Translations under genes and position numbers: made by a program
Notes under the pieces: model-generated
Told to the model about the DNA's origin: nothing
What the model saw: the letters and a program-made list of their open reading frames with translations, nothing else
The model's database searches: none
Shown here: positions 2,946 to 32,610 of the stretch, piece after piece
Layout of the letters: each line of letters begins with the position of its first letter
Position numbering within the stretch: position 1 is the first letter of the stretch
Source: an uncultured Phycisphaerales bacterium
GTDB lineage: Bacteria > Planctomycetota > Phycisphaerae > Tepidisphaerales > Tepidisphaeraceae
Length of the DNA: 64,000 nucleotides
Assembly: GCA_963755915.1 (NCBI GenBank)
Contig: CAVWLP010000002.1
Coordinates: 896,001 to 960,000, forward strand
Direction: 5' to 3'

Positions 2946-4355
2946 TTAATAGAGTTTGGTTTGGGTGGGGGATTTGGCGGCGGATTTTACGTTTTGCCAG
3001 CTTTGGCGGCAGGCGGGGATGTCGGCGGAGGGATAGTCTTTGCCGCTGGTGGGGACGAGGGTTTTGGCGGGGAGTGGGGGCAGCAGGTCGCCGTGAGCGG
3101 CGATCAGTTCGTCGCACATTTCCACGATTTTATCGAGGGGCAAAACCGCGGCGGTGAGGGGGTCGAACATGGCGGCCTGGTAGACGTGGTCGCGGCGGTT
3201 TTCCAGAGCGGCGCGGATGAATAGCTCGTGCTGGGAGATGTGGGGATTCATATAGGCGACTAGCTGCGGCGGGAGTTCGCCGACGGTGGTGAACTGGGGG
3301 CCGTTGCGATCGACGAGGGTGGGGACTTCAGCGATGGCGGTTTTGGGGAGATTGGAGATGGCGCCGTTGTTTGGCATGTTGCCGTAGACGACGGTGGGTG
3401 TGCCGGTCGTCATGGAGTGGATGATCGTGCTGCCGTATTCGTGGCTGCGGTGGATGTCCATTTTTTCGGGGCTTTTGCTGAAAGTCTTCATGCGCTCGAA
3501 CTCGTCGATGATGGCGTCGCAACGGCGGGGGTATTCGTCGAGGGGGATGTGAAAGCGGTCGACCATCTCGTGGCCGTGGGGGATGAAATGGGGGTTGTAC
3601 TCGGCGTTGTGCTCGGAGCTTTCGGTGACGAAATAGCCGAGGCGTTTCATGAGCTCGAAACGGACGGCGTTGTGGGCGAAGGTTTCGGGGTTCTGCATGG
3701 CCTGGAAAAGGCGCGGATACAAGTCCTCGCCATTTTTTTTGAGTTTTAGGTAGAAGGCCATGTGGTTGATGCCGGCGCAGATGAAGGAGACTTTTTTGGG
3801 GTCTTCGTTGATGTAACGCATGAGTTGGTCGAAGGTGCCCTGGACGGAGTGGCACAGGCCGATGGCGGGAACGCAGCTCGTGCGCGAGATCGTCTGCATG
3901 TTCATCGACATGGGGTTGGAATAATTGAGCAATAGAGCGCGCGGGCAAACGTCGGCCATGTCGCGGCACATGGAGGTGAGCATGGGGAAAGTTCGCAGGG
4001 CGCGGAAGAGGCCACCGGGGCCGGTGGTGTCGGCGATGGTGAAACGGAGGCTGTATTTTCGGGGGATTTCGAAATCGACAAGGGTGGAATCGAAGCCGCC
4101 GATCTGGACCATGTTGATGACGAAATCTGCTCCGGAGAGGGCCTGGCGGCGGTCGGTGGTGCCTTCGATTTTGGGATTGGCGCCCAGGGCGTGGGCGACT
4201 TTTTTGCAGAGATTGACGCCCACATCGAGCCGCTGGCCGTCGATATCCATGTAACTGATGGTGGCGTTCTTGAACTCGGGGTAGGAGAGGATGTCTCCGG
4301 TGAGATTTTTGGAGAAAACGACGCTGCCGGCGCCGATCATGGCGATTTTGATCAT
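2946..4355 (-). CDS. melA: GH4 NAD-dependent alpha-galactosidase
   Basis: KIAMIGAGS, DTTGPGG, NYSNP, GLCHSV, GINHMAF, TESSEH motifs; ATG at 4355. Confidence 0.9.
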   Translation of the reverse strand: MIKIAMIGAGSVVFSKNLTGDILSYPEFKNATISYMDIDGQRLDVGVNLCKKVAHALGANPKIEGTTDRRQALSGADFVINMVQIGGFDSTLVDFEIPRKYSLRFTIADTTGPGGLFRALRTFPMLTSMCRDMADVCPRALLLNYSNPMSMNMQTISRTSCVPAIGLCHSVQGTFDQLMRYINEDPKKVSFICAGINHMAFYLKLKKNGEDLYPRLFQAMQNPETFAHNAVRFELMKRLGYFVTESSEHNAEYNPHFIPHGHEMVDRFHIPLDEYPRRCDAIIDEFERMKTFSKSPEKMDIHRSHEYGSTIIHSMTTGTPTVVYGNMPNNGAISNLPKTAIAEVPTLVDRNGPQFTTVGELPPQLVAYMNPHISQHELFIRAALENRRDHVYQAAMFDPLTAAVLPLDKIVEMCDELIAAHGDLLPPLPAKTLVPTSGKDYPSADIPACRQSWQNVKSAAKSPTQTKLY

Positions 4356-4604
4356 TGTGGAAACCAGAATGACGAAACCCGAAATTAGAATCAAGGGCGA
4401 TTAATCAATTCGCTTCTGAATCGCATGGCAATCACACTTGTGCAGGAAGTGCGATAGACAGCACTAGCGGCTAGAAACTCCCCATACTTATGACAGGGCA
4501 CCGATGGACATTACGAAGAATTTTATTGAGTGCGGGGCCGGACCGGATCGTATTGGTATCCGGACCTGGGGTTAGAAGGGATCGCGCGGTTGAGAGGAGG
4601 CAAA

Positions 4605-5737
4605 ATGAAAATTGTTGCGCGGATTCTCGTCATAATCGTGCTCATCATCGTGGGGGGACGTTTCGCGCTAAATCTTCTATTTTTCGGGCGGTTGACGGCG
4701 CCGGGGATGAGTGACTTCGCGACAATTGCGAAGCAGAATCAATACATCGTCCAAGCGATTTGCGATTTCCGGGCGGACCATGGAATGCTGCCACAGGCTA
4801 TGGGCGATCTTGTTCCCAACTATCTCTCCAGGATGCCAGGGGGCATGGTGTTTTTCGACGGCGACTCGCTCGATATCCCTGCGGCGCACCGCACACGGGT
4901 GTTTATTATTCATTCCGAGCTGGACAGGAGGGCTGGTTCGTCGGAGGCGATTTTGGCAACGGCCCATTGCCTCTGCCGAAAGTCGCCTCGACGCATCCAT
5001 CACCCGTCGGCGACGACCTGGCAAAAACACGTGTTGCCGAGTACGACCGGCGCATTGCAGCTGACCCAAAGTCCCATCGAAATTACGTGCAGAAATTGGA
5101 CTACTTGTACTCGGTGGGCAAGACGGACGAACTTCTGGCGGCATGTAAGCTTGCATCGCAACGATTTCCGCAATGGTGGCGACCTAAGATGGTGGAGGCA
5201 GTATTGGCGGATTCTAAGTCGCGACCGCAGGCCGAGGCGAGCTTTCGCGCTTGGGCCGGAGCAAATCCCGGTTTCATCCACTGGTGGTATCTATGTCGAT
5301 ACTACGGTGATATCGGGCGCGACCACGAAGCGGTGGCGGCGTTGGAAAATGCCGTGAAATATCCGCTTCAGAACATCGACGATGACGAGGATTGGGTTCC
5401 GGCAGCGTTCGCATTCGATGCGGCGGCCTATGCCTACAATCAAAAGCGATTTCCGCTGGTTTTGGAAATCGCGCGCGTCTGGGCGTCGCCCGTAGGGATT
5501 TATAATTATTTCGATAACGATATTTACGCGTTTCGTGCGGCGGCGGAATTATCTTTGGGTAGGTTCGCAGACGCGAAAGCTGATGCGGACAAGGCGGTGC
5601 AGGCGAATGCGCAACAGGCGATGTGGGCGGGACATTTGCCTGACCTGCAGGCAGCTGCAAATCGACAAGATCAGGGGTTCGTTTACGATCCAGGCACCCA
5701 ATGCGGAGATTGGACGCTGTTCCAACCGCCACAATAG
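4605..5737 (+). CDS. membrane-anchored TPR-like protein (frameshift near 4890)
   Basis: GAGGAGG RBS and hydrophobic N-terminus MKIVARILVII in one frame; helical TPR-like repeats in the 4760..5737 frame. Confidence 0.65.
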
Positions 5738-22467: not shown

Positions 22468-22555
22468 TGGGGAGATTGTCTGCGGTTTTTGGGGGTTTGT
22501 CATGGGGCGGGGGAGCGCTCCCCTTCTGGTCGCGGCCAAACTAAAATGTAGGGGA

Positions 22556-23225
22556 ATGTCGGATGCATGGATTTTGGCGTGCTTCGTGCCAGCGGCCTAT
22601 TTGATCGGTTCGGTCCCCTTCGGCCTGCTCGTCGGCAAGGCCAAAGGAATCGATCCCCGCAAGGCAGGCAGCGGCAATATTGGCGCAACCAACGTCGGCA
22701 GACTCCTCGGCGGAAAATATTTCTGGCTCGTCTTCAGCCTCGACATGCTCAAAGGCGCACTCCCCGCTTTGGCAGCAGGAACAGTAATTGGCTATCGCAT
22801 CACTGATTGGGTGACCTGCCTCCTGTGGATGGCCGTCGCCGCCGCCGCGGTGCTGGGGCATATGTGCAGCCTCTTCCTGAAATTCAAAGGCGGCAAGGGC
22901 GTCGCCACCAGCGCGGGCATGATGATCGGCATCTTCCCCTTTTACACCCTGGCCCTGATCCCCGGCGCGATCGTCTTTGTGATCGCCTTCCTTTTGACCA
23001 AATACATCAGCGTAGGCTCGATCTCGGCGGCGTTTGCGTTTGCCGTTGGGTATATCATCATCGGATTGATCGAGCACTGGCCAATCACCGGCGCCCAGCT
23101 TCCCCTGCTCTGTTTTGCCCTGGCGCTGCCGGCACTGATCATCTATAAGCACCGCGGCAACATCGCCCGCCTGCGCCGGAACGGAGCCGCGATTTGCGGC
23201 AAAGGCATCATGCGAATCAAAGTGA
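22556..23225 (+). CDS. plsY: glycerol-3-phosphate acyltransferase; frameshift near 23175
   Basis: YLIGSVPFG, GSGNIGATN, FKGGKGVAT, HRGNIARL; GTEPRF tail in the shifted frame. Confidence 0.9.
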
Positions 23226-23407
23226 ACGGACAGGATTTTGAGGCTGCCGAGGGGGCGGATATTCATGCGCTGCTGAAGGCGCATAACCTGACGGCGGACA
23301 AGGTGGCCGTGGAGGTTAATCGGCGGCTGGTGAGGGGGGATAAGTATGATACGAAATTGAAGGGCGGGGATGAGGTGGAGATTGTGACGTTTGTGGGAGG
23401 GGGATAA
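23210..23407 (+). CDS. thiS: sulfur carrier protein ThiS
   Basis: MRIKVNG..VAVEVN..EIVTFVGGG-stop. Confidence 0.92.
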   Translation: MRIKVNGQDFEAAEGADIHALLKAHNLTADKVAVEVNRRLVRGDKYDTKLKGGDEVEIVTFVGGG

Positions 23408-23447: not shown

Positions 23448-24164
23448 TCAGATTTTCGATTCAGCAAGGCTTGGCTCGCCTACGACAAATTCCGGATCGA
23501 GCAGAGTCAAGTCACGTTGAAATCTGTTCTTAAGGGATCTTTGAAATTCTCGACATCTTTCAACGTCATTTCGATCGAAAAGAGATTTTCCTCGATTCTT
23601 GGCGATTGTCTCAACAGACCTCTGGTCGAGCAGCTCCAATGCGGCGTTGAGCACACGGTCAATTTTGGTCACGCGGTCTCGCACGGTCTTAGACGGCATC
23701 CCTGGTGCCACTCCCCAGAACTGCCCCGCTTCTCGGAAATACTTTGGCTTGGATGGGTCGGACAGCCATGCTTTAAAAACAGGATGCTCCAATATCCCCG
23801 ATAGAAGCGATTCAAGTTCGCGGTCAGCCTTCTCGCGAGTGACTCCATCGCCCGGTTTAAGCTGCGAAGCCTCGTGAAGTCCTGCGGCGGCGAGCCGATA
23901 AATCATTGGCCTAACCCGCTCTATCAGGCCCTGCCCAACGAGGCCGATAGAACCACGCCGATTGAGTTCCTTATTAATCTTTTCGGCGTCCGGAAACTCG
24001 TTTTCGAATTTTCGCAGGCCCCATGCCGCTTTGTCTTGGCGCCAAGCTTCCACGAGCAGATCTTCCGCGGAAAAGGTTTTTCCCAGGTCGCCTCCCGTTA
24101 GGCGTAAAGCCGCGAGAAGAGCCTGATCACGTAAACCTAAGCCCTTGACATCAACGTCTGGCAT
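23448..24164 (-). CDS. hypothetical protein with possible winged-helix N-terminus (island gene 3)
   Basis: ATG at 24164 just downstream of the previous stop; GLVGQGLIERVRPMIYRL resembles a wHTH wing; lower GC by eye. Confidence 0.7.
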   Translation of the reverse strand: MPDVDVKGLGLRDQALLAALRLTGGDLGKTFSAEDLLVEAWRQDKAAWGLRKFENEFPDAEKINKELNRRGSIGLVGQGLIERVRPMIYRLAAAGLHEASQLKPGDGVTREKADRELESLLSGILEHPVFKAWLSDPSKPKYFREAGQFWGVAPGMPSKTVRDRVTKIDRVLNAALELLDQRSVETIAKNRGKSLFDRNDVERCREFQRSLKNRFQRDLTLLDPEFVVGEPSLAESKI

Positions 24165-24187
24165 ATCATTACCTAGCGTACGAACTT

Positions 24188-26534
24188 CTACGTTAACTCC
24201 TGTCCACTCGTGATGTAGGACTGAAGCTTTTCCCACATGGGCTGCATGAGAGACACCTGAAAGTTTTCGAGTGTGCGTTTATGGTTCGCCCAATATTCTA
24301 GCTTCTCATTCTCGCCCTTTCTGGTGAATTCTTCCATCATGTGCACCTGAGCTACCATCTCGATGAGCTTTTGAACGTGAAATGAGCGCCAACGAAGTAA
24401 ATCTTCATGGCGCGACTTGAAAAAATAAGAAGCTTCTGGGCTTCCCAAGTTCAACCACCAAATATTGGCCAACTCGTCACAAACCTCTTGCCAGAGTGTT
24501 GGCTGATCCGGGTTTGACGGACGAATTTTCCCAGTATCGGGATCGACGTCCTTGTCGGTGATGAGCAGTCGTGGAAATCCTCCGCCTCGCTGCCTCTCTT
24601 TCGGGTTAGGGATCACCGCGACTTCTGCTCGAATACGAGCCCAAATTCCGCCATTAGCCTCTTCCCCCGCGCCTGCGCTAATGGACGTGCGCCCGATCCG
24701 ATTCCCCGTGACTTGCCCCCACGGGGAAACTCTTACTATCAGCTGATCGGGGGCATCGTGTGCCCAGTTCAATAGAACATTCGTCGCGCGGTTGCCCTCA
24801 TCGTTCGTCACCTGAGCCGTAATCGGTTTGCGATTGCCAAGTGGGATTTCGAGCGTTCTTGGTGTTAGAAGTACGTGATCAACCAACCACACTTCGATTT
24901 CAACGCGAGGAGATTCGATCTTCTGGCCCTTCACGCGGCACCAGATATGGCATCCGCCTTTGCGCGACGCCGTCATTCGGTCACCCGAGTTGAACTCGAC
25001 GACGTGCCGATCGCTGGAGAACCACTCCAGGTCAACGTGGGGGACAGTCTTGCCGTCTCGGTCGCAGACACGGCTGCCCAGGATGCCGGACATCCCCGAC
25101 GTAACGCCGGCGCCGATTCTAAGTGGCTGCGCAGCGTCCCAACTAATAAACTCGATCGACTCAGGCGTTTCTCCGTAATCCCGCGCCGGGGGTGTAGGCC
25201 GGAAGATAGGCCCCTTGCCATCACCAGAGCCTGTCCCGTCGCCGCCCGGCCCCGCGCTTTCAAGAAATTGGTTCTTAAACCGGTCCAACGCGGCGTTCTC
25301 TCGCTGAACCTCATCCAACGTGTGATCGTCGAGTTCTTGGCGACGGTGTTCATTGATCTCTTTGGCCAGTTCTTTGATACAGTCGCAAATGAAGCGGTCT
25401 ACCGCCGAGACGAGAGGTCCGTCGTTAGGCGCACGCGCCCAAGAGCGACGTAGTCCGGCTCAAACGCGCCGAGCTCAACAACGCCGTAAATGAAATCAGA
25501 ACCGGGTATACCAGACGCGAAATCGGAAACTGGCTTTGAACCAATGATGTGATTATGGTTAGCTTTGTAAGTGACCTTCCATCGCGGCTTCAAATTCTTA
25601 TGAGCTGTGCGCATGTTCTGGCGTGAAGTGTAAAGCACGAGCCGCCCGCGACTCCGAGCGCCATTAAGCGTCGTGGACTGATCCACGCCGGCCTCGTCCT
25701 TTAACAGTTCGGGGATCTCATACGCCGGGCGAGTTCGAAGCCGGGATACGGCTCGATAGGCTCAAGCTGTAGTGGTTTACCTTCATTTAGAATCGTGCCA
25801 TTCCGGACAGCGAAGAGCCGAAATTGCTCAATAGCAGCCGTCGCTTGGTCATGCCGCAAGAGTTTCGTCGTGAGGTCTACTGGAATGCGGCCTTTGAAGA
25901 AATCTTTTGGATCTAGTCCTTCCACCAACGTGAAAGCTTGCCGCTTTTCTATCGCATCGGTCACCGCGTGAGGCAACTCCTCAGGCTGAATGTCGTACAC
26001 CTTTAGAGCCTCGCTCAATTCCGATCGCCACGACGCTACTGGCAAATCGCGTGCAGCGGCATCGCTCGGGATGAAGCCTGGGCAACCGCGTTCCAGCGAT
26101 TGAGGCGGTCCCTCAAAACCCTTGCAATTCAGTTTTCCGTCACGGATGCCGAGGATACGAGCGCGACCGTTGAAGAGCTTGTACATGTAGGCCTTGGCGC
26201 CGTTACCCTGGGTTTGTTCTTCCGGAAGCGAGGACCCGCGGCCAGAGGCCGTAAAATCTTGCCAAACGCTCCACCTAGTAACGTCTTCGAGCGTAGCGCC
26301 ACCAACGTCCAAAACACCCAATGCGGCCGGGCCTTCGTATTCGGCATCCTTCATTAGCAACACCGCAACGCGCAATTCTTCCGGAACGCTGGCGCGGTCG
26401 GATTGATAGGCGCGTCTTACATTTTTCAGCCATTCGGCGAGCCCCTCAGCGTGAGTGCTGATCCATCTTGTGAGTGAGCGAAGTGTCCCGAGTTCGTGAA
26501 ACTCGATGCCGTTCTCATCGCGTTCAATGCTCAT
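24188..26534 (-). CDS. GHKL (MORC/HSP90-like) ATPase with tandem Ig-like domains, about 780 aa; two frameshifts (island gene 2)
   Basis: EGLAEWLKN, LDVGG, QGNGAK motifs. The three listed ORFs join across 1-nt shifts near 25730 (YEIPELLKDEAGVDQST) and 25430 (PNDGPLVSAVDRF..LDEVQ). Confidence 0.7.
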
Positions 26535-26551
26535 AAATCCCACCTATATAA

Positions 26552-27169
26552 CTATTCCCCATTGGGCTGAGCCGGTAAACGTTCCCAGCGTGCTTGAACC
26601 TCTGCTCGCCACTCGGATGTTCCGGGAATCGAGTAGCCTTGACGCCCGTGTTGCTCCACTAGACCGCACTCGCGTAACCAGTTCAGGCAGAGATATGGCT
26701 GATAGGACGGAATTTCGCTGCCATCGCCCGTCGTCAGAGGCAAAACATCGTTCATCGAAAACTGCCTGCTTTTGCGGCTCGCTTTAACCAATGCCTCCAC
26801 CAGCGAGAATAACACTGCCTTGGGAGCCTTGTGCTCGTATTCCCCCTCTGATTTGGAATAGCCAACCTTAATCAGCCAGTCTTCTCGCCCATAAAATTTA
26901 GGGTACTCAGATCTTCGACCCCTCTTTCGCTTGAATGTTGCCGCGTCGGCTGCGCTAGGTTGGCCCTGCCCAGCCGCAACGCCCACCCCAATCTCTTGTG
27001 CGTGCCCTCCGATCGCCCTAGACCATTTGTCCGACAGAGCTCCAATCGCTCGCGCGATGTCCAAGACAGTGGCGGCGCGGTCATAGTTTCTCGACGAGGC
27101 ATATTCTCCGGACAGCTTCGCGAGCGATTCCTCAGCACCTACTAAGATTTCGTGAACCTTCTGATCCAT
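26552..27169 (-). CDS. hypothetical protein (island gene 1), possible C-terminal winged helix
   Basis: 205 aa ORF preceded by AT-rich promoter-like DNA; LNWLRECGLVEQHGRQGY. Confidence 0.7.
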   Translation of the reverse strand: MDQKVHEILVGAEESLAKLSGEYASSRNYDRAATVLDIARAIGALSDKWSRAIGGHAQEIGVGVAAGQGQPSAADAATFKRKRGRRSEYPKFYGREDWLIKVGYSKSEGEYEHKAPKAVLFSLVEALVKASRKSRQFSMNDVLPLTTGDGSEIPSYQPYLCLNWLRECGLVEQHGRQGYSIPGTSEWRAEVQARWERLPAQPNGE

Positions 27170-27413
27170 ACAGGGAAGAATAATACAACGAAAATACTAA
27201 TTGTCAAATAAAAAATACAGATAAAATACAGGCAAAATGCTCTTTGGGGCCGTCGCGGCCTCGAAACGAACAGTTTGGCCAGCGGCCATCTCTTCAACTG
27301 TTCGCCAATTTTGGCCCATGCCCCTATTTTGTTCGAGAGTGTCACTTTTTGTAACCTTTTGTCACCTCGTTTCGGCATTTGGCCTTCGGCCTTCGCCGTT
27401 CTAAAATCCCCCC

Positions 27414-28232
27414 ATGCACCCCCTCCGCATCGGCAAATTCGAACTCTCCAGCCGCCTGTTCGTCGGAACGGGCAAATACGCTTCGTACGAGATCATGCAG
27501 GAAGCCCTGGCCGCCAGCGGCTGCCAGGTGGTGACCGTCGCTGTGCGGCGGGAACGGCTGATCGATAAACAGGGGCGGTTGATCCTGGATTTCCTGGACC
27601 TGAGCAAATATGTCATTCTGCCGAACACGGCGGGTTGCTTCAGCGCGGAGGATGCGATCAGGGTGGCGCTGCTGGGGAGGGAACTGCTCGAGAAGCAAAA
27701 GAATCCGGGGGCGAACTGGGTGAAGCTAGAAGTGCTGGGGGATAAGAAGACGCTGTTGCCGGATCCGATGGGATCGCTCGAGGCGACCAAGGAGCTGGTA
27801 AAGGAAGGGTTCACGGTGTTGTGCTACAGCAGCGACGATCCGATCGCGGCCCGGCGGATCAAAGAAGCCGGTGCGGCGAGCGTAATGCCGGCGGGAAGCC
27901 CGATCGGGTCGGGGCAGGGCGTTTTGAATCCGCTGAATATTTCGCTTTGCCTGGAGACGCTGAAGGAGGGGGATAAGAATTATCCGGTGATTGTGGATGC
28001 GGGAGTGGGGACCGCGAGCGATGTGGCCGTGGCGATGGAGTTGGGAGCCGACGGTGTGCTGCTGAATACGGGGGTGGCGCACGCCAAGGATCCGGTGAAG
28101 ATGGCCGGCGCCATGAAGCTGGCGATCGAAGCGGGGAGATTGGCGTTTGAATCGGGGCGAATCGCCAAAAAGCGGTACGCGACGGCGAGCAGCCCGTTTG
28201 ATGGAGTGATCAGCTATATTCCAGGCGAGTGA
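27414..28232 (+). CDS. thiG: thiazole synthase
   Basis: [40 protein letters not shown]. Confidence 0.96.
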
Positions 28233-28236
28233 GGGC

Positions 28237-29025
28237 GTGACTGAGGATTCGGGCAACAATTCTACTGACGGCCCCCACCCTAACCCTCTCCCCGGAGGAC
28301 TGCGTCCCGCGTACCAGGGGAGGGGAGAAGAGTTGTGGCGGAAGTTGGCCGATAAGGCGGGGGTAACTCTTGGGGCTGACCAGATCTCGAAACTTCATCG
28401 GTATCTGGATTTGCTGCTCGAAGCCAATCAGCGGATGAATCTCACGCGAATTTCTGATCGCGGGGCGGCGGAGCTTTTGCATGTTGCGGATGCGCTAACG
28501 GTTCTTGGGCATCTGCCGGAGGCGGAGCATCGGCTGGCGGACCTGGGAAGCGGCGGCGGGGTGCCGGGGATTGTGCTGGGAATTGCGCGGCGAAATTGCG
28601 CGGTGACGCTGATCGAATCGACGCGAAAAAAGGCGGATTTTCTCCGCGAGGCGGTGAAGATATTGGGTTTGGAGAATGTGTCGGTAGCGGCAATCCGCGC
28701 CGAGGAGGCGGGGCGAGGGAAGATGCGGGAGGGGTTTGACGTGGTTGTAGCGCGGGCGGTAGGGGTTTTGCCGATCTTAGTCGAGTGGATGCTGCCTCTG
28801 GTGAAGGTTGGGGGCCAGGGTTTGGCGATGAAGGGGCCCAAGGGGCGGGAGGAAGTTGAGCAGACGAAGGGGGCGATAACGGCGCTGGGGGGCGGGAAGG
28901 TGGAGATCGTTTCAGCCGAACTGGAGGGGGCGGAGGGGCACGTGATTGTGAAAATCGGCAAGATACGGCCAACACCGGCCAGGTTTCCGCGGGATGCATC
29001 GATTTCCAAGGGAAAGCCGATATAG
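28237..29025 (+). CDS. rsmG: 16S rRNA m7G527 methyltransferase
   Basis: NQRMNLTRI, DLGSGGGVPG, IESTRKKADFL, VARAV. Confidence 0.92.
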   Translation: MTEDSGNNSTDGPHPNPLPGGLRPAYQGRGEELWRKLADKAGVTLGADQISKLHRYLDLLLEANQRMNLTRISDRGAAELLHVADALTVLGHLPEAEHRLADLGSGGGVPGIVLGIARRNCAVTLIESTRKKADFLREAVKILGLENVSVAAIRAEEAGRGKMREGFDVVVARAVGVLPILVEWMLPLVKVGGQGLAMKGPKGREEVEQTKGAITALGGGKVEIVSAELEGAEGHVIVKIGKIRPTPARFPRDASISKGKPI

Positions 29026-29131
29026 CAGTGGGTCAACTGGGCAATGTATGGATATAATTGGCAGACTGCCCACTGGGCAAGCGCCTCAAGGTTGACGTGC
29101 GCTTTCGAGCCGCCGCCAGGAAAGGTTTTCT

Positions 29132-29848
29132 ATGCTCGTGCTGACCCGCCAGCGAGATCAGATCATCATGATTGGGGATGACGTGGAGATTACCGTGGTT
29201 GATATCCGCGGCGACAAAGTGCGGCTGGGGATCACCGCGCCGATGAGTGTGAAGGTTTATCGGCGTGAGGTTTACGATCAGATTCGCGAGGAGAACCGGG
29301 CCGCGGCGCAGATGGTTCCGGCGGATCTGGTGAACATTCCAGCCACGCCCCCCCCGCCGGCGCCGGTGGCGATCGAGCCGCAGCGGGCGACGTTTCCGCG
29401 ACTGGCGGCCGAGAGCCGCGACCCGTTCATGCAGGCGGCGATTGATGAAGCCTTACTGGGCCTCAGCGAGGGAGGATTGCCGATCGGGTCGGTGCTGGCG
29501 CGCGGAAATCAGATTATCGGGCGCGGACACAATCGCCGCGTGCAGCGCGGGGATCCGATGGCCCATGCGGAGATCGATTGCCTGACGAATGCCGGGCGGC
29601 AGAAGACATATGCGGACACGGTGCTCTATTCGACGCTGATGCCCTGTTTTCTGTGCAGTGGAGCAGTCGTGCAGTTTGGCGTGCCGAGGGTGGTCGTGGG
29701 AGAGAGCGTAAATTTTGGAGGCGGGCCGGAGCTGATGCGCTCGAAGGGAATTGAAGTCGTGGATTTGCACGATCGGGATTGCATTGAAATGATGGGGCAA
29801 TTCATCCGGCAGCATCCGGAGCTTTGGAATGAGGATATCGGGAAGTAA
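29132..29848 (+). CDS. csrA: CsrA RNA-binding domain fused to a zinc-dependent cytosine/nucleoside deaminase
   Basis: MLVLTRQRDQIIMIGDDVEITVVDIRGDKVRLGITAP..VYRREVY, Pro-rich linker, then HAE..PCFLC and WNEDIG. Confidence 0.85.
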   Translation: MLVLTRQRDQIIMIGDDVEITVVDIRGDKVRLGITAPMSVKVYRREVYDQIREENRAAAQMVPADLVNIPATPPPPAPVAIEPQRATFPRLAAESRDPFMQAAIDEALLGLSEGGLPIGSVLARGNQIIGRGHNRRVQRGDPMAHAEIDCLTNAGRQKTYADTVLYSTLMPCFLCSGAVVQFGVPRVVVGESVNFGGGPELMRSKGIEVVDLHDRDCIEMMGQFIRQHPELWNEDIGK

Positions 29849-29927
29849 TTAACGTAAGCCGGACCGGCCCGGGGACGGGCCGGCTCATTTTCGGGGCAAT
29901 ACGGGATTGGAGATTCGGGGCCGGCAT

Positions 29928-30443
29928 ATGGTGGAGTTGCCCCCACAAAGTCGCATTTCGCTACGCGTGGACCGCGAGGGGATGACCATCGTTATTCCAA
30001 AGCCGATGGGGAAATCGAAGGGTAGCTGGGGGCTGGCGGCAATCGCAGCGTTTCTCACCGTTTCGTTTATCGTTCAGGGGCTTCTCAGCGGCAACCAGGC
30101 GTGGACAGGCGTGGGCCTGCTCTGCTTCATCGTAACGGCCTGGCAGCTCATGGCGCTGTGCGGACTGGCGGCAAGGGAGGATCAGACAAAATTGCAGGTT
30201 ACCGGCGAATATCTGGTGAGATTCGCGGGCCCGGCGGATAGCCCGCAGCGGACCGACTGGCAACGGGTGAAGGTATCGGAGCTGAGGGTCGAGAAGGAAT
30301 CAGAATCCAATCGCACCGGGCTGCGAATGCATTTCAAGGATAAGCAGGCGCCGGCGTGGCTGGTCATGGATGGGGATTCGCAGGAGCTGGACTGGGTGGC
30401 GGAGCAGATTCGTAAGAAATGGGGGATGGGAGGGGCGGTTTAA
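29928..30443 (+). CDS. hypothetical two-TM membrane protein
   Basis: Two hydrophobic helices followed by a soluble domain. Confidence 0.65.
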   Translation: MVELPPQSRISLRVDREGMTIVIPKPMGKSKGSWGLAAIAAFLTVSFIVQGLLSGNQAWTGVGLLCFIVTAWQLMALCGLAAREDQTKLQVTGEYLVRFAGPADSPQRTDWQRVKVSELRVEKESESNRTGLRMHFKDKQAPAWLVMDGDSQELDWVAEQIRKKWGMGGAV

Positions 30444-30502
30444 TTTAATCCGCGGCAAACAATCTGACCCTACCTTACCATTCGAACACCCAATAGAGGG
30501 CA

Positions 30503-31459
30503 TTGGAGGCAATCGTGAACCAAAGGACTTCAATGCGGTTCGTCACTGGCTCGACAAGCCTTTTCAATGAATTCGCTTTAATATTGGGCGGACTCGCGGC
30601 AGCAATCCTTCTTCCTGCCTCCGCGCGTGGCCAAATCTTCGCCAGCAACACCGCCCTCGGGACAATTGGTGAATACACCACGTCGGGAGTCCCAATAAAT
30701 CCCTCACTGATAACGGGGCTTGACGGCGCGGGAGCCATTGTCGCCTCTGGGTCGGACCTGTACTTCGTAACCAATAGCGGCACAACTGTCGACAAATACA
30801 CGACATCGGGGACCATCGTGCAGACCTTCAATGTTAACGGGTTGTCAGCAATATCCGGAATTGCAGTCTCCGGGTCTGATCTGTTCGTCGCGGAATCCCT
30901 CGGCGCCATCCTCGAGTATACCACTTCGGGAGTCCTCCTCAACCCATCGCTGGCCGTTTCGAGCGATCCTTCCAGCATCGCCGTATCCGGATCCGACCTG
31001 TATGTGACGAATCTGTTTGCCGGCACGATCAGCGAATACACAACCTCCGGAACCTCAGTAAACCCCTCACTTGTTTCCGGGCTGGACGATCCCTACGACA
31101 TTGCCGCACCGGGTTCGGATTTGTTTGTTCTCAACGAAGGAAGCGACACGATCAGCGAATTCAATACCTCGGGAGATCCCGTCGATACCGACCTGGTTTC
31201 GGGCCTCGATGGATCGGGTGGAATAGCCGTATCCGGATCCGGCCTGTTCTACGCAAGCTTTGCCGGCGGAACGATCAACCAGTACACCACGTCCGGGGAT
31301 CCCGTCGCGGCGCCTCTGATCTCTGGCCTGCCAGGGGTGCAGGACATCGCGGTTGTGCCCGAGCCAGCGATCGGATCAATCCTCCTGACCAGCGCCGTTG
31401 GAATCGTGATGCGCCGAGCGCCACAAGTTGGCCAGGGTTGCGAACGCCGCTTCAGATGA
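30503..31459 (+). CDS. PEP-CTERM protein with beta-propeller-like repeats
   Basis: Repeated TIxEYTTSGxxVNPSL/IAVSGSDL units; VPEP, hydrophobic stretch, RR. Confidence 0.85.
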   Translation: MEAIVNQRTSMRFVTGSTSLFNEFALILGGLAAAILLPASARGQIFASNTALGTIGEYTTSGVPINPSLITGLDGAGAIVASGSDLYFVTNSGTTVDKYTTSGTIVQTFNVNGLSAISGIAVSGSDLFVAESLGAILEYTTSGVLLNPSLAVSSDPSSIAVSGSDLYVTNLFAGTISEYTTSGTSVNPSLVSGLDDPYDIAAPGSDLFVLNEGSDTISEFNTSGDPVDTDLVSGLDGSGGIAVSGSGLFYASFAGGTINQYTTSGDPVAAPLISGLPGVQDIAVVPEPAIGSILLTSAVGIVMRRAPQVGQGCERRFR

Positions 31460-31485
31460 TACAGCCGGATGCAATACGGTCTAAC

Positions 31486-32610
31486 TCATTGGGCGGGGCT
31501 ACTGTAATCCGGACGCATGACGGGGGTCAGGTCCACGCCGGTCGCGGATTGGACTGACTGGATCAAATCCTGCGCCGTTTGCGGAGGGTGATTGCGCCAG
31601 GCGGGGAGTACTTTAGCAAGCGCGGAATCGCCGGATTTGGTCAGCAGGGTTTGGATCACCAGGGCCCCTTTGGGCAGGAGCATTTCATCATATTGAGCCA
31701 GGTATTCTGGGCGGATTTGCGAAGGGTCGAGGGTGTTGGTCAGGTCGATGGCCAGATAGGGGCGGGGCTCGCCGGGGCGGCCGATGAGCTGCTCCGTCCA
31801 GTATTGCCGCGACATCCCGGTGATTTGCGAGCAATATTTGACGGCAAAAAGGTTGCAGGCGCCGAAATCGATCCACTGAAGCTGGGCGGGGAGGTTCAAG
31901 GGCGCGAAGACGGTTTTATGGATGAAGATCTCCAAGATGTGCTCGGCCTGGTTTTGGGAGAAGAGTGAGATGTCGCCGGCGAGGAGGGCTTCGAGGGTTT
32001 TGGCCTGTGTTTCGAGCGCATCGCGGCGGGTGGGAGTTGAGTCGCCGCCCTGAAGCGGGACCCACCAGATCAGATCGTCCATCGGCTGCAGCGCGGAAAG
32101 GTGGAAGAAGGGGGAATATCCAACATCATTTGCATAGCGGTTATAGTGGAACCGGGGATCGGACCACCCGGCGACCAGCAGCGAGGCGAGATCCTCGTGG
32201 GTGATGGGGAAATAATAGACGTTAAGCTTCATCGCCGACATTTTCTGGAGGCCGGTGAGGAGATCGTTGTCGAAGAAGGCATCGACAACTTTGGGATCGG
32301 CAAGGGCGAAATCCCCGGTAATCTGCGTGATAAGATCGGCCCGATGCTGATTGGCCGCGGAGACCAGGTCGGAAGGCATGGTGGTGGGACGCGTCGTGGG
32401 CGGAACGGAGGCGAGCGCCGATTTCACCCAGTCCTCGTCAGCGGACAAACAGAAGGCGGCGCGATCGCCGGACGTGACGATGTGATAGCCGGGCGGGACG
32501 ACTGCTTTGTGCGCCGCCGGCTGGGTGGACGGATCGGGCGTTGGATTAGCTTGAGCCAGCGCGGCGAGCAGCAGCAGCGGACAACCAAGGATCGCGATCC
32601 AGCGGAACAT
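31486..32610 (-). CDS. hypothetical exported protein
   Basis: Signal peptide; PSTQP/TTRPTT motifs. Confidence 0.7.
   Translation of the reverse strand: MFRWIAILGCPLLLLAALAQANPTPDPSTQPAAHKAVVPPGYHIVTSGDRAAFCLSADEDWVKSALASVPPTTRPTTMPSDLVSAANQHRADLITQITGDFALADPKVVDAFFDNDLLTGLQKMSAMKLNVYYFPITHEDLASLLVAGWSDPRFHYNRYANDVGYSPFFHLSALQPMDDLIWWVPLQGGDSTPTRRDALETQAKTLEALLAGDISLFSQNQAEHILEIFIHKTVFAPLNLPAQLQWIDFGACNLFAVKYCSQITGMSRQYWTEQLIGRPGEPRPYLAIDLTNTLDPSQIRPEYLAQYDEMLLPKGALVIQTLLTKSGDSALAKVLPAWRNHPPQTAQDLIQSVQSATGVDLTPVMRPDYSSPAQ

Follow-up and report, generated by a model that had tools for sequence, protein, structure and literature searches.

The stretch of DNA described here, referred to as the window, comprises 64,000 nucleotides from an uncultured Phycisphaerales bacterium, a soil planctomycete (contig CAVWLP010000002.1 of assembly GCA_963755915.1). 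Its forward strand carries a single open reading frame at 29132..29848 (window coordinates are used throughout), which starts with ATG and has 238 codons plus a stop in the list of open reading frames. Judged from its sequence, this one gene encodes one protein of 238 residues, made up of a complete CsrA domain of the FliW type, a disordered and variable Pro-rich linker and a complete zinc deaminase of the Fcy1 type; residue numbers below refer to this protein. An earlier note, made from the letters alone, had described a complete CsrA domain and an intact deaminase with the motifs HAE (145-147), PCFLC (171-175) and WNEDIG (232-237) in a single frame, and Pfam and the sequence confirm this. 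The parts of the gene are as follows.

29132..29848, + strand: whole fused gene (open reading frame list; all 120 of the 120 best relatives listed are fused, at full length)
29132..29308, + strand: CsrA domain, residues 1-59 (Pfam PF02599, NCBIfam NF002469, gapless alignments, AlphaFold2 model)
29309..29422, + strand: Pro-rich linker, residues 60-97, with an FPRLA motif at 88-92 (alignment and the predicted local confidence score pLDDT)
29348..29355, + strand: C8 homopolymer within the linker, exactly eight C in the sequence, in Pro codons
29423..29845, + strand: Fcy1-type cytosine deaminase domain, residues 98-238 (phmmer, pLDDT)
29564..29572, + strand: H145-A-E147, zinc ligand and catalytic Glu (yeast H62 and E64), invariant in the alignment
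29642..29656, + strand: P171-C172-x-x-C175 (PCFLC, residues 171-175), zinc ligands (yeast C91 and C94), invariant in the alignment
29825..29842, + strand: W232-N-E-D235-I236-G237, C-terminal lid above the base pocket (yeast W152, D155 and I156; alignment, and PMC11000218 as far as its text was available)

The C8 run lies within the linker, and the earlier note had cautioned that an indel there could falsely merge two separate genes. The caution was reasonable, as either C7 or C9 would split the frame. With seven C the CsrA frame would continue to a stop at 29583-29585; with nine, a stop would come at about 29443-29448, leaving an in-frame GTG at 29366 as a possible start for a separate deaminase. 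Twenty public sequencing runs matched the window, none with half of the sampled words, and among the Logan contigs of four of these runs (X1, X2, X4 and X15) none spans 29348-29355 with its flanks; record 14 of X4 stops at 29351. Record 5 of X15, a contig from an RNA library, joins a CsrA part (29201-29238) to a deaminase part (29419-29461), with 105 letters between them versus 180 in the window; it belongs to a relative, and may represent DNA carry-over in the RNA library. Since no public contig crosses the C run, the case for the fusion rests on comparison.

The relatives were taken from a search of 5.8 billion sequences, in which 8000 candidates were scored, 7952 of them at E<=0.001, and the best 120 were listed. 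All 120 are 222-277 amino acids long, are 63-97% identical to the window protein and contain both PF02599 and PF00383; they cover 100% of the query in 119 cases and 95% in one. The 90% cluster of the window protein has six other members from assemblies of JGI, ENA, NCBI and Logan, all of them 95-97% identical to it. Each has the same frame on either side of the C run, and residues 69-83 (IPATPPPPAPVAIEP), encoded across it, are identical in three of the six, differ by one substitution in two and by two in the last. Invariance is counted here and below over an alignment of 41 fused proteins, the window protein and 40 relatives. In this alignment the linker, of about 38 residues in the window protein, differs in length and sequence from one relative to another and the frame is always kept. 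The fusion is real and conserved, because all 120 listed relatives are fused, their linker indels are in frame and the six closest proteins keep the frame with near-identical linkers; in addition, 32 genomes of the bacterial family show a single match from residue 1. An assembly artefact thus has next to no probability left, and comparison removes the caveat attached to the C run.

The start of the deaminase was also correctly noted earlier: residues D97-P98-F99 immediately precede M100, the first Met of the deaminase. As stand-alone relatives begin M-DPFL or MS-DPFL, a product initiated at M100 would be without F99, which is invariant. A single ribosome-binding site had been proposed for the gene, and a Shine-Dalgarno-like sequence, AGGAAAGG, is indeed found at 29118-29125.

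An AlphaFold2 monomer model built on the 41-row alignment has a mean pLDDT of 82.7 and a predicted template modelling score (pTM) of 0.60, with both domains confidently predicted. The CsrA part displays strands at residues 11-35 and a helix at 45-59, and pLDDT values in the deaminase are mostly 83-97. The linker is predicted to be disordered (pLDDT <50 at residues 81-92). A complex prediction with two copies of CsrA 1-62 and two of deaminase 84-238 scored 0.01 (mark 0.32), a value that bears neither way on interdomain docking. The FPR(L)A motif of the linker (residues 88-92, 29393-29407), modelled at low confidence, is kept in most, not all, of the fused proteins and is absent from the stand-alone deaminases, which begin M-DPFL.

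The CsrA half is complete. Residues 1-53 match profile positions 1-53 of 53 in Pfam PF02599 (E 1.7e-22; 79.5 bits, cutoff 27), and the NCBIfam equivalogs NF002469 (82.4 bits, cutoff 73) and TIGR00202 (73.2, cutoff 70.1) agree. The best structural relatives by sequence are two chains that align without gaps, CsrA from the Geobacillus complex with FliW (5DMB) and Bacillus subtilis CsrA (1T3O). Residues L2, L4, R6, I14, R44, E46 and N55 are invariant. L4 in beta1 and R44 in beta5 are critical RNA-binding residues of CsrA, whose active form is an interdigitated homodimer (PMC7652899, available portion). By whole-domain profile match and RNA-binding residues the domain thus belongs to CsrA/RsmA. 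Described CsrAs are small, with a single domain; with 238 residues and a second domain, the window protein is not a typical CsrA but a larger protein with a CsrA domain.

The FliW-regulated subtype of CsrA is suggested by N55, which aligns without gaps to N55 of B. subtilis CsrA, and by the presence of fliW in the genome. FliW grips CsrA at its extended C-terminus (PMC7652899, in the portion available); N55 is necessary for FliW binding and I14 for inhibition, and position 41 forms a salt bridge with K123 of FliW in B. subtilis (bioRxiv 10.1101/2020.07.02.184341, as excerpted). The fused CsrA might accordingly be a member of a FliW partner switch, in which it titrates FliW or is switched by it, and metabolism would follow flagellar assembly. 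The invariance of N55 and I14, the likeness to the 5DMB chain and the presence of FliW in 94 of 101 sampled genomes of the family, as a rule in one copy, are consistent with such a role. Against it, position 41 is K in the window protein and variable among its fused relatives, the bulky domain attached to the very segment that FliW grips may block FliW, and the conservation of N55 may reflect mere descent. Membership in a FliW network is therefore an improbable explanation of the fusion.

The deaminase half is of the cytosine deaminase type. Residues 96-190 match Pfam dCMP_cyt_deam_1 (E 8.7e-20), and in a phmmer search of all solved structures residues 98-238 align with residues 13-158 of the 158-residue yeast cytosine deaminase chains at E 5e-38 to 7e-39. 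For TadA, the best chain has E 1.5e-17 and the alignments end at about residue 190-203. The NCBIfam TadA equivalog NF008113 reaches 72.3 bits (cutoff 150), over residues 96-192 only, so that the protein falls outside this family. The earlier note had likewise placed the domain nearer to Fcy1 than to TadA, and both the phmmer values (7e-39 versus 1.5e-17) and the equivalog score support that view. In searches against defence systems only a stretch of 45 residues around the zinc motifs matched (PADLOC dCTPase, 5.9e-8; NF041025, 27.9 bits against a cutoff of 400).

Residue by residue, with yeast numbering equal to the index in the 161-residue chain minus 3, the alignment pairs N134 with Asn51, H145 with His62, E147 with Glu64, C172 with Cys91, C175 with Cys94, F195 with Phe114, W232 with Trp152, D235 with Asp155 and I236 with Ile156. 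All nine are invariant, and so are E234, G237 and F99. In the yeast enzyme Glu64, Asn51, Asp155 and Gly63 hold the base together with zinc, and Phe114, Trp152 and residues 153-158 form a lid (PMC11000218, from the part of the paper available). Zinc ligands, catalytic Glu, base contacts and lid residues of the Fcy1 type are all present. The deaminase half therefore probably acts on the free base cytosine and not on RNA, because base-contact and lid residues are invariant and a buried single-base pocket is unsuited to a polynucleotide.

These residues also bear on a suggestion of the earlier note, that the deaminase edits C (or A) in RNAs held by CsrA. The tethering of a nucleic-acid-binding domain to a deaminase of the CDA fold invites such a view, and TadA is a detectable, though more distant, relative. 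Nevertheless the match to the free-cytosine enzyme runs from end to end, the lid and base contacts are invariant in the 41 fused proteins, and the TadA equivalog is far under its cutoff. Further, most genomes with the fused gene have no other Fcy1-type salvage enzyme, and sister fusions described below carry ordinary PurN and MoaE enzymes. Editing of tethered RNA is thus very unlikely.

The distribution of the fusion was followed in several samples. Among contigs of species representatives, where 80 loci were kept out of 594 confirmed stretches, an intact fusion is present in 11 (L005-L015), and one more locus (L028) carries the fusion in two frames. All 12 have public titles of Tepidisphaeraceae, Tepidisphaerales, Humisphaera, Phycisphaerales or Phycisphaerae. 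L008 among them comes from a Humisphaera metagenome-assembled genome. Four of the 80 loci, in the same group as the fused loci, have a deaminase on its own that starts M-DPFL; eight loci from other phyla have the stand-alone enzyme only, and 56 have CsrA alone. A class-wide sample covered 401 genomes of 24 families, the window genome included. A match from residue 1 was found in 18 of the 64 genomes of the window's family (public titles Tepidisphaeraceae), and among the best 150 rows, with 1200 weaker rows besides, none was found in the 337 genomes of other families. Among the genomes sampled and the best 150 rows, the architecture is confined to the window's own family. In 50% clusters of 1.84 billion representatives, only four of the best 150 proteins have matches that span residue 1 through residue 233 or beyond (P0035, P0128, P0133 and P0141).

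A sample of 101 genomes of the family shows the fusion in about 34. Of these, 32 have one match from residue 1; the other two are G426, with a continuous fused frame, and G387, with the halves in adjacent frames. A stand-alone deaminase only is present in 38 genomes, and 29 are without a match at E<=1e-30. If G283, a genome marked as unpublished and counted by match, is left out, the figures are 17 of 63 class-wide and 33 of 100 in the family sample. Many relatives thus encode the deaminase separately, but not always, and the fusion is not refuted by them. In a deaminase-domain tree of 72 rows, made by a quick method and poorly resolved, fused and stand-alone forms of the family intermingle; this tree neither shows nor excludes a single origin of the fusion.

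Gene copies differ for the two halves. Of the 34 fusion-bearing genomes of the family, 30 have no deaminase match at E<=1e-30 besides the fused gene, which indicates that the enzyme role is retained. CsrA is present in 100 of the 101 genomes, and all 34 fusion-bearing genomes have at least two CsrA matches, the separate copy adjoining fliW where examined. In the window genome this second CsrA, of 90 amino acids, adjoins FliW (G000:C3:636572-637018; Pfam 3.8e-33) and a flagellar gene (L002). The fused gene adds a further CsrA paralog, located apart from the flagellar genes. A CsrA-domain tree (118 rows, 60 columns, topology unresolved) places stand-alone domains on very short branches and fused copies on longer branches than the flagellar copies, with terminal branches of up to 0.3-1.6 versus an overall median of 0.063; the fused paralogs thus evolve faster.

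Seven fused proteins have lost the lid, zinc ligands or catalytic residues and keep both the open frame and a conserved CsrA. The C-terminal lid is gone from L085 (genome G357). L165 (G414) differs where the yeast enzyme has Asn51, Cys91 and Asp155, and L169 (G415) has lost the His and both Cys. L028 (G387), from a long-read metagenome-assembled genome and with a frame change within the linker, has lost the His, the Glu and one Cys. HAE and PCxxC are gone from P0128 and P0141, and P0133 has lost PCxxC and the His of HAE, with the Glu kept. An Asn-to-Asp change (GHDRR) is common to four or five of the seven.

Three of the four genomes with degenerate fusions (G357, G387 and G414) have a second deaminase. 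The second copies of G357 and G387 read as intact; that of G414 was detected only, at 49% identity, and none was seen in G415, a genome 72% complete. Among 28 genomes with verified intact fusions, a second deaminase copy is present in one only (G129). The contrast, 3 of 4 with dead versus 1 of 28 with intact fusions, is suggestive; the genomes are kin, so no statistic is given. The dead fusions hold about 140 codons open with the CsrA half conserved. The existence of relatives with a dead deaminase and an intact CsrA makes a nucleobase-sensing translational regulator, the second option of the earlier note, more plausible than before, and we infer that the deaminase domain has a non-catalytic role as well.

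The CsrA head is not confined to deaminases. Thirty CsrA matches were fetched, most of them within long open frames, and these revealed two sister fusions. CsrA-PurN proteins of 281-290 amino acids are found in five genomes (L149 in G352, L150 in G265, L151 in G178, L153 in G171 and L170 in G409); L149 matches Formyl_trans_N at 7.9e-43, the other four have the same PurN signature by pattern, and their PurN domains are 56-79% identical to that of L150. A CsrA-MoaE protein of 235 amino acids, with the catalytic subunit of molybdopterin synthase, is encoded at L152:1001-1705 (G327; MoaE 2.5e-38). Each of these fusions is the only close copy of its enzyme in its genome. Further formyltransferase matches in the CsrA-PurN genomes are 31-36% identical, in frames of about 300-350 amino acids, and are taken to be Fmt. 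The window genome itself has a stand-alone MoaE (G000:C2:2291610-2292011).

Longer relatives of the stand-alone CsrA of the window genome (best 120 of 653, classed by precomputed Pfam labels) extend this picture. Among the 120 listed, 55 are CsrA-deaminase and 51 are CsrA only, some of them tandem; P0332 and P0252 are tandem double CsrA proteins. Ten clusters are CsrA-GNAT of about 246 amino acids (P0352, P0354, P0355, P0368, P0369, P0385, P0403, P0412, P0413 and P0419), with a partner that reads as phosphinothricin-acetyltransferase-like. Two have CsrA with flagellin or FliW domains, one is CsrA-TIR (P0353) and one joins CsrA to AraC and GyrI-like domains (P0346), a singleton and possibly a read-through; singleton architectures may be gene-calling or assembly errors. 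An N-terminal CsrA head thus recurs on at least four enzyme families within one bacterial family.

A bifunctional protein is proposed, a free-cytosine deaminase and a CsrA translational regulator in which the state of the enzyme domain is coupled to RNA binding; the probability of this reading is put at roughly 45%. The deaminase domain would convert cytosine to uracil in pyrimidine salvage. The CsrA domain would dimerise as CsrA does, bind GGA-containing mRNA leaders and repress their translation. The enzyme, attached at the C-terminal extension that in other CsrAs is the FliW site, would modulate the attached CsrA according to whether substrate is bound, the C-terminal lid is closed or the domain itself is dimeric, so that a set of mRNAs would be translated in step with the availability of pyrimidine bases. 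The protein would be a sensor-enzyme with an RNA-binding output in one polypeptide, a post-transcriptional counterpart of the enzyme-repressors BirA, PutA and PyrR, and the catalytically dead relatives would be versions that retain the regulatory role alone.

Several observations weigh against this proposal. The fusion is dispensable, as 38 of the 101 family genomes have the stand-alone deaminase only. The PurN and MoaE fusions supply the sole copy of a housekeeping enzyme, which is equally expected if fusion merely co-expresses two independent functions, and a disordered, freely varying linker is no less fitting for independent beads on a string than for allostery. The dead forms are rare and could be slowly decaying remnants; for residues 75-227 of P0141, nothing closer than E 1.8e-9 was found outside its own two-member cluster. 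The leader of the fused gene is, by its sequence, no conserved CsrA site, since 9 of 29 orthologs are without a near GGA and several look leaderless, and the fold of the window leader is no better than that of shuffled sequences (z = -0.39). What the comparisons show are the architecture, the conservation of both functional surfaces, the paralog and sole-copy status of the gene, the degenerate series and the sister fusions; the coupling itself is inferred.

Some of these points lead to a simpler view, in which the two domains act as their stand-alone versions do and the fusion provides co-expression or fixed stoichiometry, or is a near-neutral accident that spread in one family, with no coupling between the halves. 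Besides the disordered linker of varying length, the stand-alone enzymes and the sole PurN and MoaE copies, the intermingling of fused and stand-alone deaminases in the poorly resolved tree is consistent with it, as the CsrA half seems easily gained or lost. On the other hand, a CsrA module on at least four enzyme families in one bacterial family is hardly an accident. The open frames and conserved CsrA of the dead fusions, in genomes of which three of the four have a second deaminase, are likewise not expected from independent halves, and the longer branches of the fused CsrA domains suggest functional divergence over mere duplication. This uncoupled arrangement is on balance unlikely, though it is next in probability to the coupled one.

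A broader form of the coupled regulator can also be considered. The Tepidisphaeraceae may have a modular class of one-component post-transcriptional regulators, in which a CsrA head is wired via its FliW-binding extension to interchangeable small-molecule-binding enzymes (cytosine deaminase, PurN, MoaE and the phosphinothricin-acetyltransferase-like GNAT). Metabolite occupancy would then set the translation of mRNAs with GGA leaders, and the pseudo-deaminases would be pure sensors whose catalysis has passed to a stand-alone copy. This generalization is speculative and is regarded as doubtful.

The upstream region of the gene is of interest with respect to autoregulation. Signals and neighbouring genes around the fused gene are as follows.

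29118..29125, + strand: Shine-Dalgarno-like AGGAAAGG, its GGA being the only one within 25 nt of the ATG (sequence)
29053..29058, + strand: TATAAT, a possible -10 box (sequence)
29864..29893, + strand: terminator-like GC hairpin with a T-rich tail, directly 3' of the stop (scan: 1 site versus a mean of 0.8 in shuffles, weak alone)
27414-28232, + strand: thiG, upstream (Pfam ThiG 1.5e-98)
28237-29025, + strand: rsmG/gidB, upstream (Pfam GidB 8.5e-45)

The CsrA head could simply repress its own mRNA at the Shine-Dalgarno sequence and so make a self-limiting enzyme, a homeostatic circuit with no wider regulon. Repression by the CsrA homodimer at a site overlapping the Shine-Dalgarno sequence is a textbook mode (PMC7652899, in the portion available), an AGGA lies within the Shine-Dalgarno region of the window gene, and a GGA lies at most 25 nt from the ATG in 20 of the 29 orthologs whose upstream regions were compared. 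The nine remaining orthologs are without one, some being apparently leaderless; a GGA is expected in the Shine-Dalgarno sequence of any gene; and the leader has neither a second upstream GGA hairpin nor significant structure. The dead-enzyme versions would also be left unexplained. Self-limitation is therefore improbable as the purpose of the fusion.

Most of the 29 fused genes compared have a TATAAT-like box upstream, and a consensus promoter scan found no full promoter at 29053..29058. In L157, L099, L097, L100 and L161 the TATAAT-like box is so close to the ATG that their transcripts may have little or no leader. An Rfam search over 26500-31500 at E<=1 gave 0 matches.

The coupled regulator has partial likenesses among known systems. 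PyrR combines the fold of a uracil phosphoribosyltransferase with the activity of an RNA-binding attenuator, and BirA, PutA and NadR are also bifunctional enzyme-regulators, in which the state of a metabolite governs gene expression. Like these, the window protein has a metabolic enzyme (or its fold) and a nucleic-acid-binding regulator in one polypeptide, and PyrR also links pyrimidine salvage with RNA. However, their nucleic-acid-binding modules are other ones, and in PyrR the enzyme fold itself binds RNA, whereas here a CsrA joined by a flexible linker would do so, through a coupling that is presumed. From CsrA/RsmA (1T3O, 5DMB) the window protein has the full fold signature, with L4, R44 and N55 kept and a separate fliW-csrA pair in the genome, but described CsrAs have a single domain of about 60-90 amino acids and this one has a 140-residue enzyme on its C-terminal extension.

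Yeast Fcy1 (1UAQ, 1P6O, 1YSD) aligns from end to end, with zinc ligands, catalytic Glu, base contacts and lid in common; the window protein adds the N-terminal CsrA and the linker, and its candidate substrates are cytosine, 5-fluorocytosine, creatinine and isoguanine. TadA shares the CDA fold and the HAE and PCxxC zinc motifs, but is without the C-terminal lid of Fcy1 that the window deaminase has. Fcy1-type deaminases are also naturally fused to UPRTase (P0189), Cupin_2 (P0124), radical SAM (P0214) and an MptE-like kinase domain (P0234). The domain is thus often found joined to others; the UPRTase fusion unites two consecutive salvage steps, and none of these partners is an RNA-binding regulator.

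CsrA is among the best-studied translational regulators of bacteria and is treated as a small protein of one domain, whose activity is set externally by decoy small RNAs or by the proteins FliW and CesT. The domains of the window protein are textbook; their combination is not. No description of a natural CsrA-enzyme fusion was found in the literature, subscription journals and supplements being outside reach. A 2026 survey of more than 20,000 CsrA homologs, which trimmed sequences to the Pfam domain, mentions no natural fusion in the portion available, and long homologs might be in its supplements (PMC13443453). Databases contain hundreds of such genes, labelled either 'carbon storage regulator CsrA' or, at JGI, 'cytosine/creatinine deaminase'.

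The fusions of this family hint at an undescribed link between metabolism and translation. If the domains are coupled, an enzyme on the segment gripped by FliW would be a new mode of CsrA control, with a metabolite pool hard-wired to translation. The recurrence of the head on cytosine deaminase, PurN, MoaE and GNAT raises the question of whether one-component RNA-binding regulators exist, as one-component transcription factors do. Even if the domains are independent, annotation should change, as each current label loses one function.

The gene order thiG-rsmG-fusion is kept in L005, L006, L011 and L013, and rsmG alone is upstream in L012 and L014. At the equivalent place L018 has a stand-alone deaminase, preceded by another small open reading frame. 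Farther upstream in the window, a 301-amino-acid open reading frame (22502-23407, + strand) comprises PlsY (G3P_acyltransf, residues 31-224) and ThiS (239-301). In L005 and L006 the two parts match as separate pieces, with differing frames in L005; the window frame is thus either a genuine fusion or the product of an assembly indel. Four minus-strand open reading frames (23448-27169) lie between thiS and thiG in the window, and in L005 thiS (4115-4312) is directly before thiG (4421-5236). The difference suggests that about 4 kb has been inserted there in the window's lineage. Downstream of the fusion, an open reading frame of 178 amino acids (29907-30443, + strand) has no Pfam match and is 43% identical to the open reading frame at the same position in L005.

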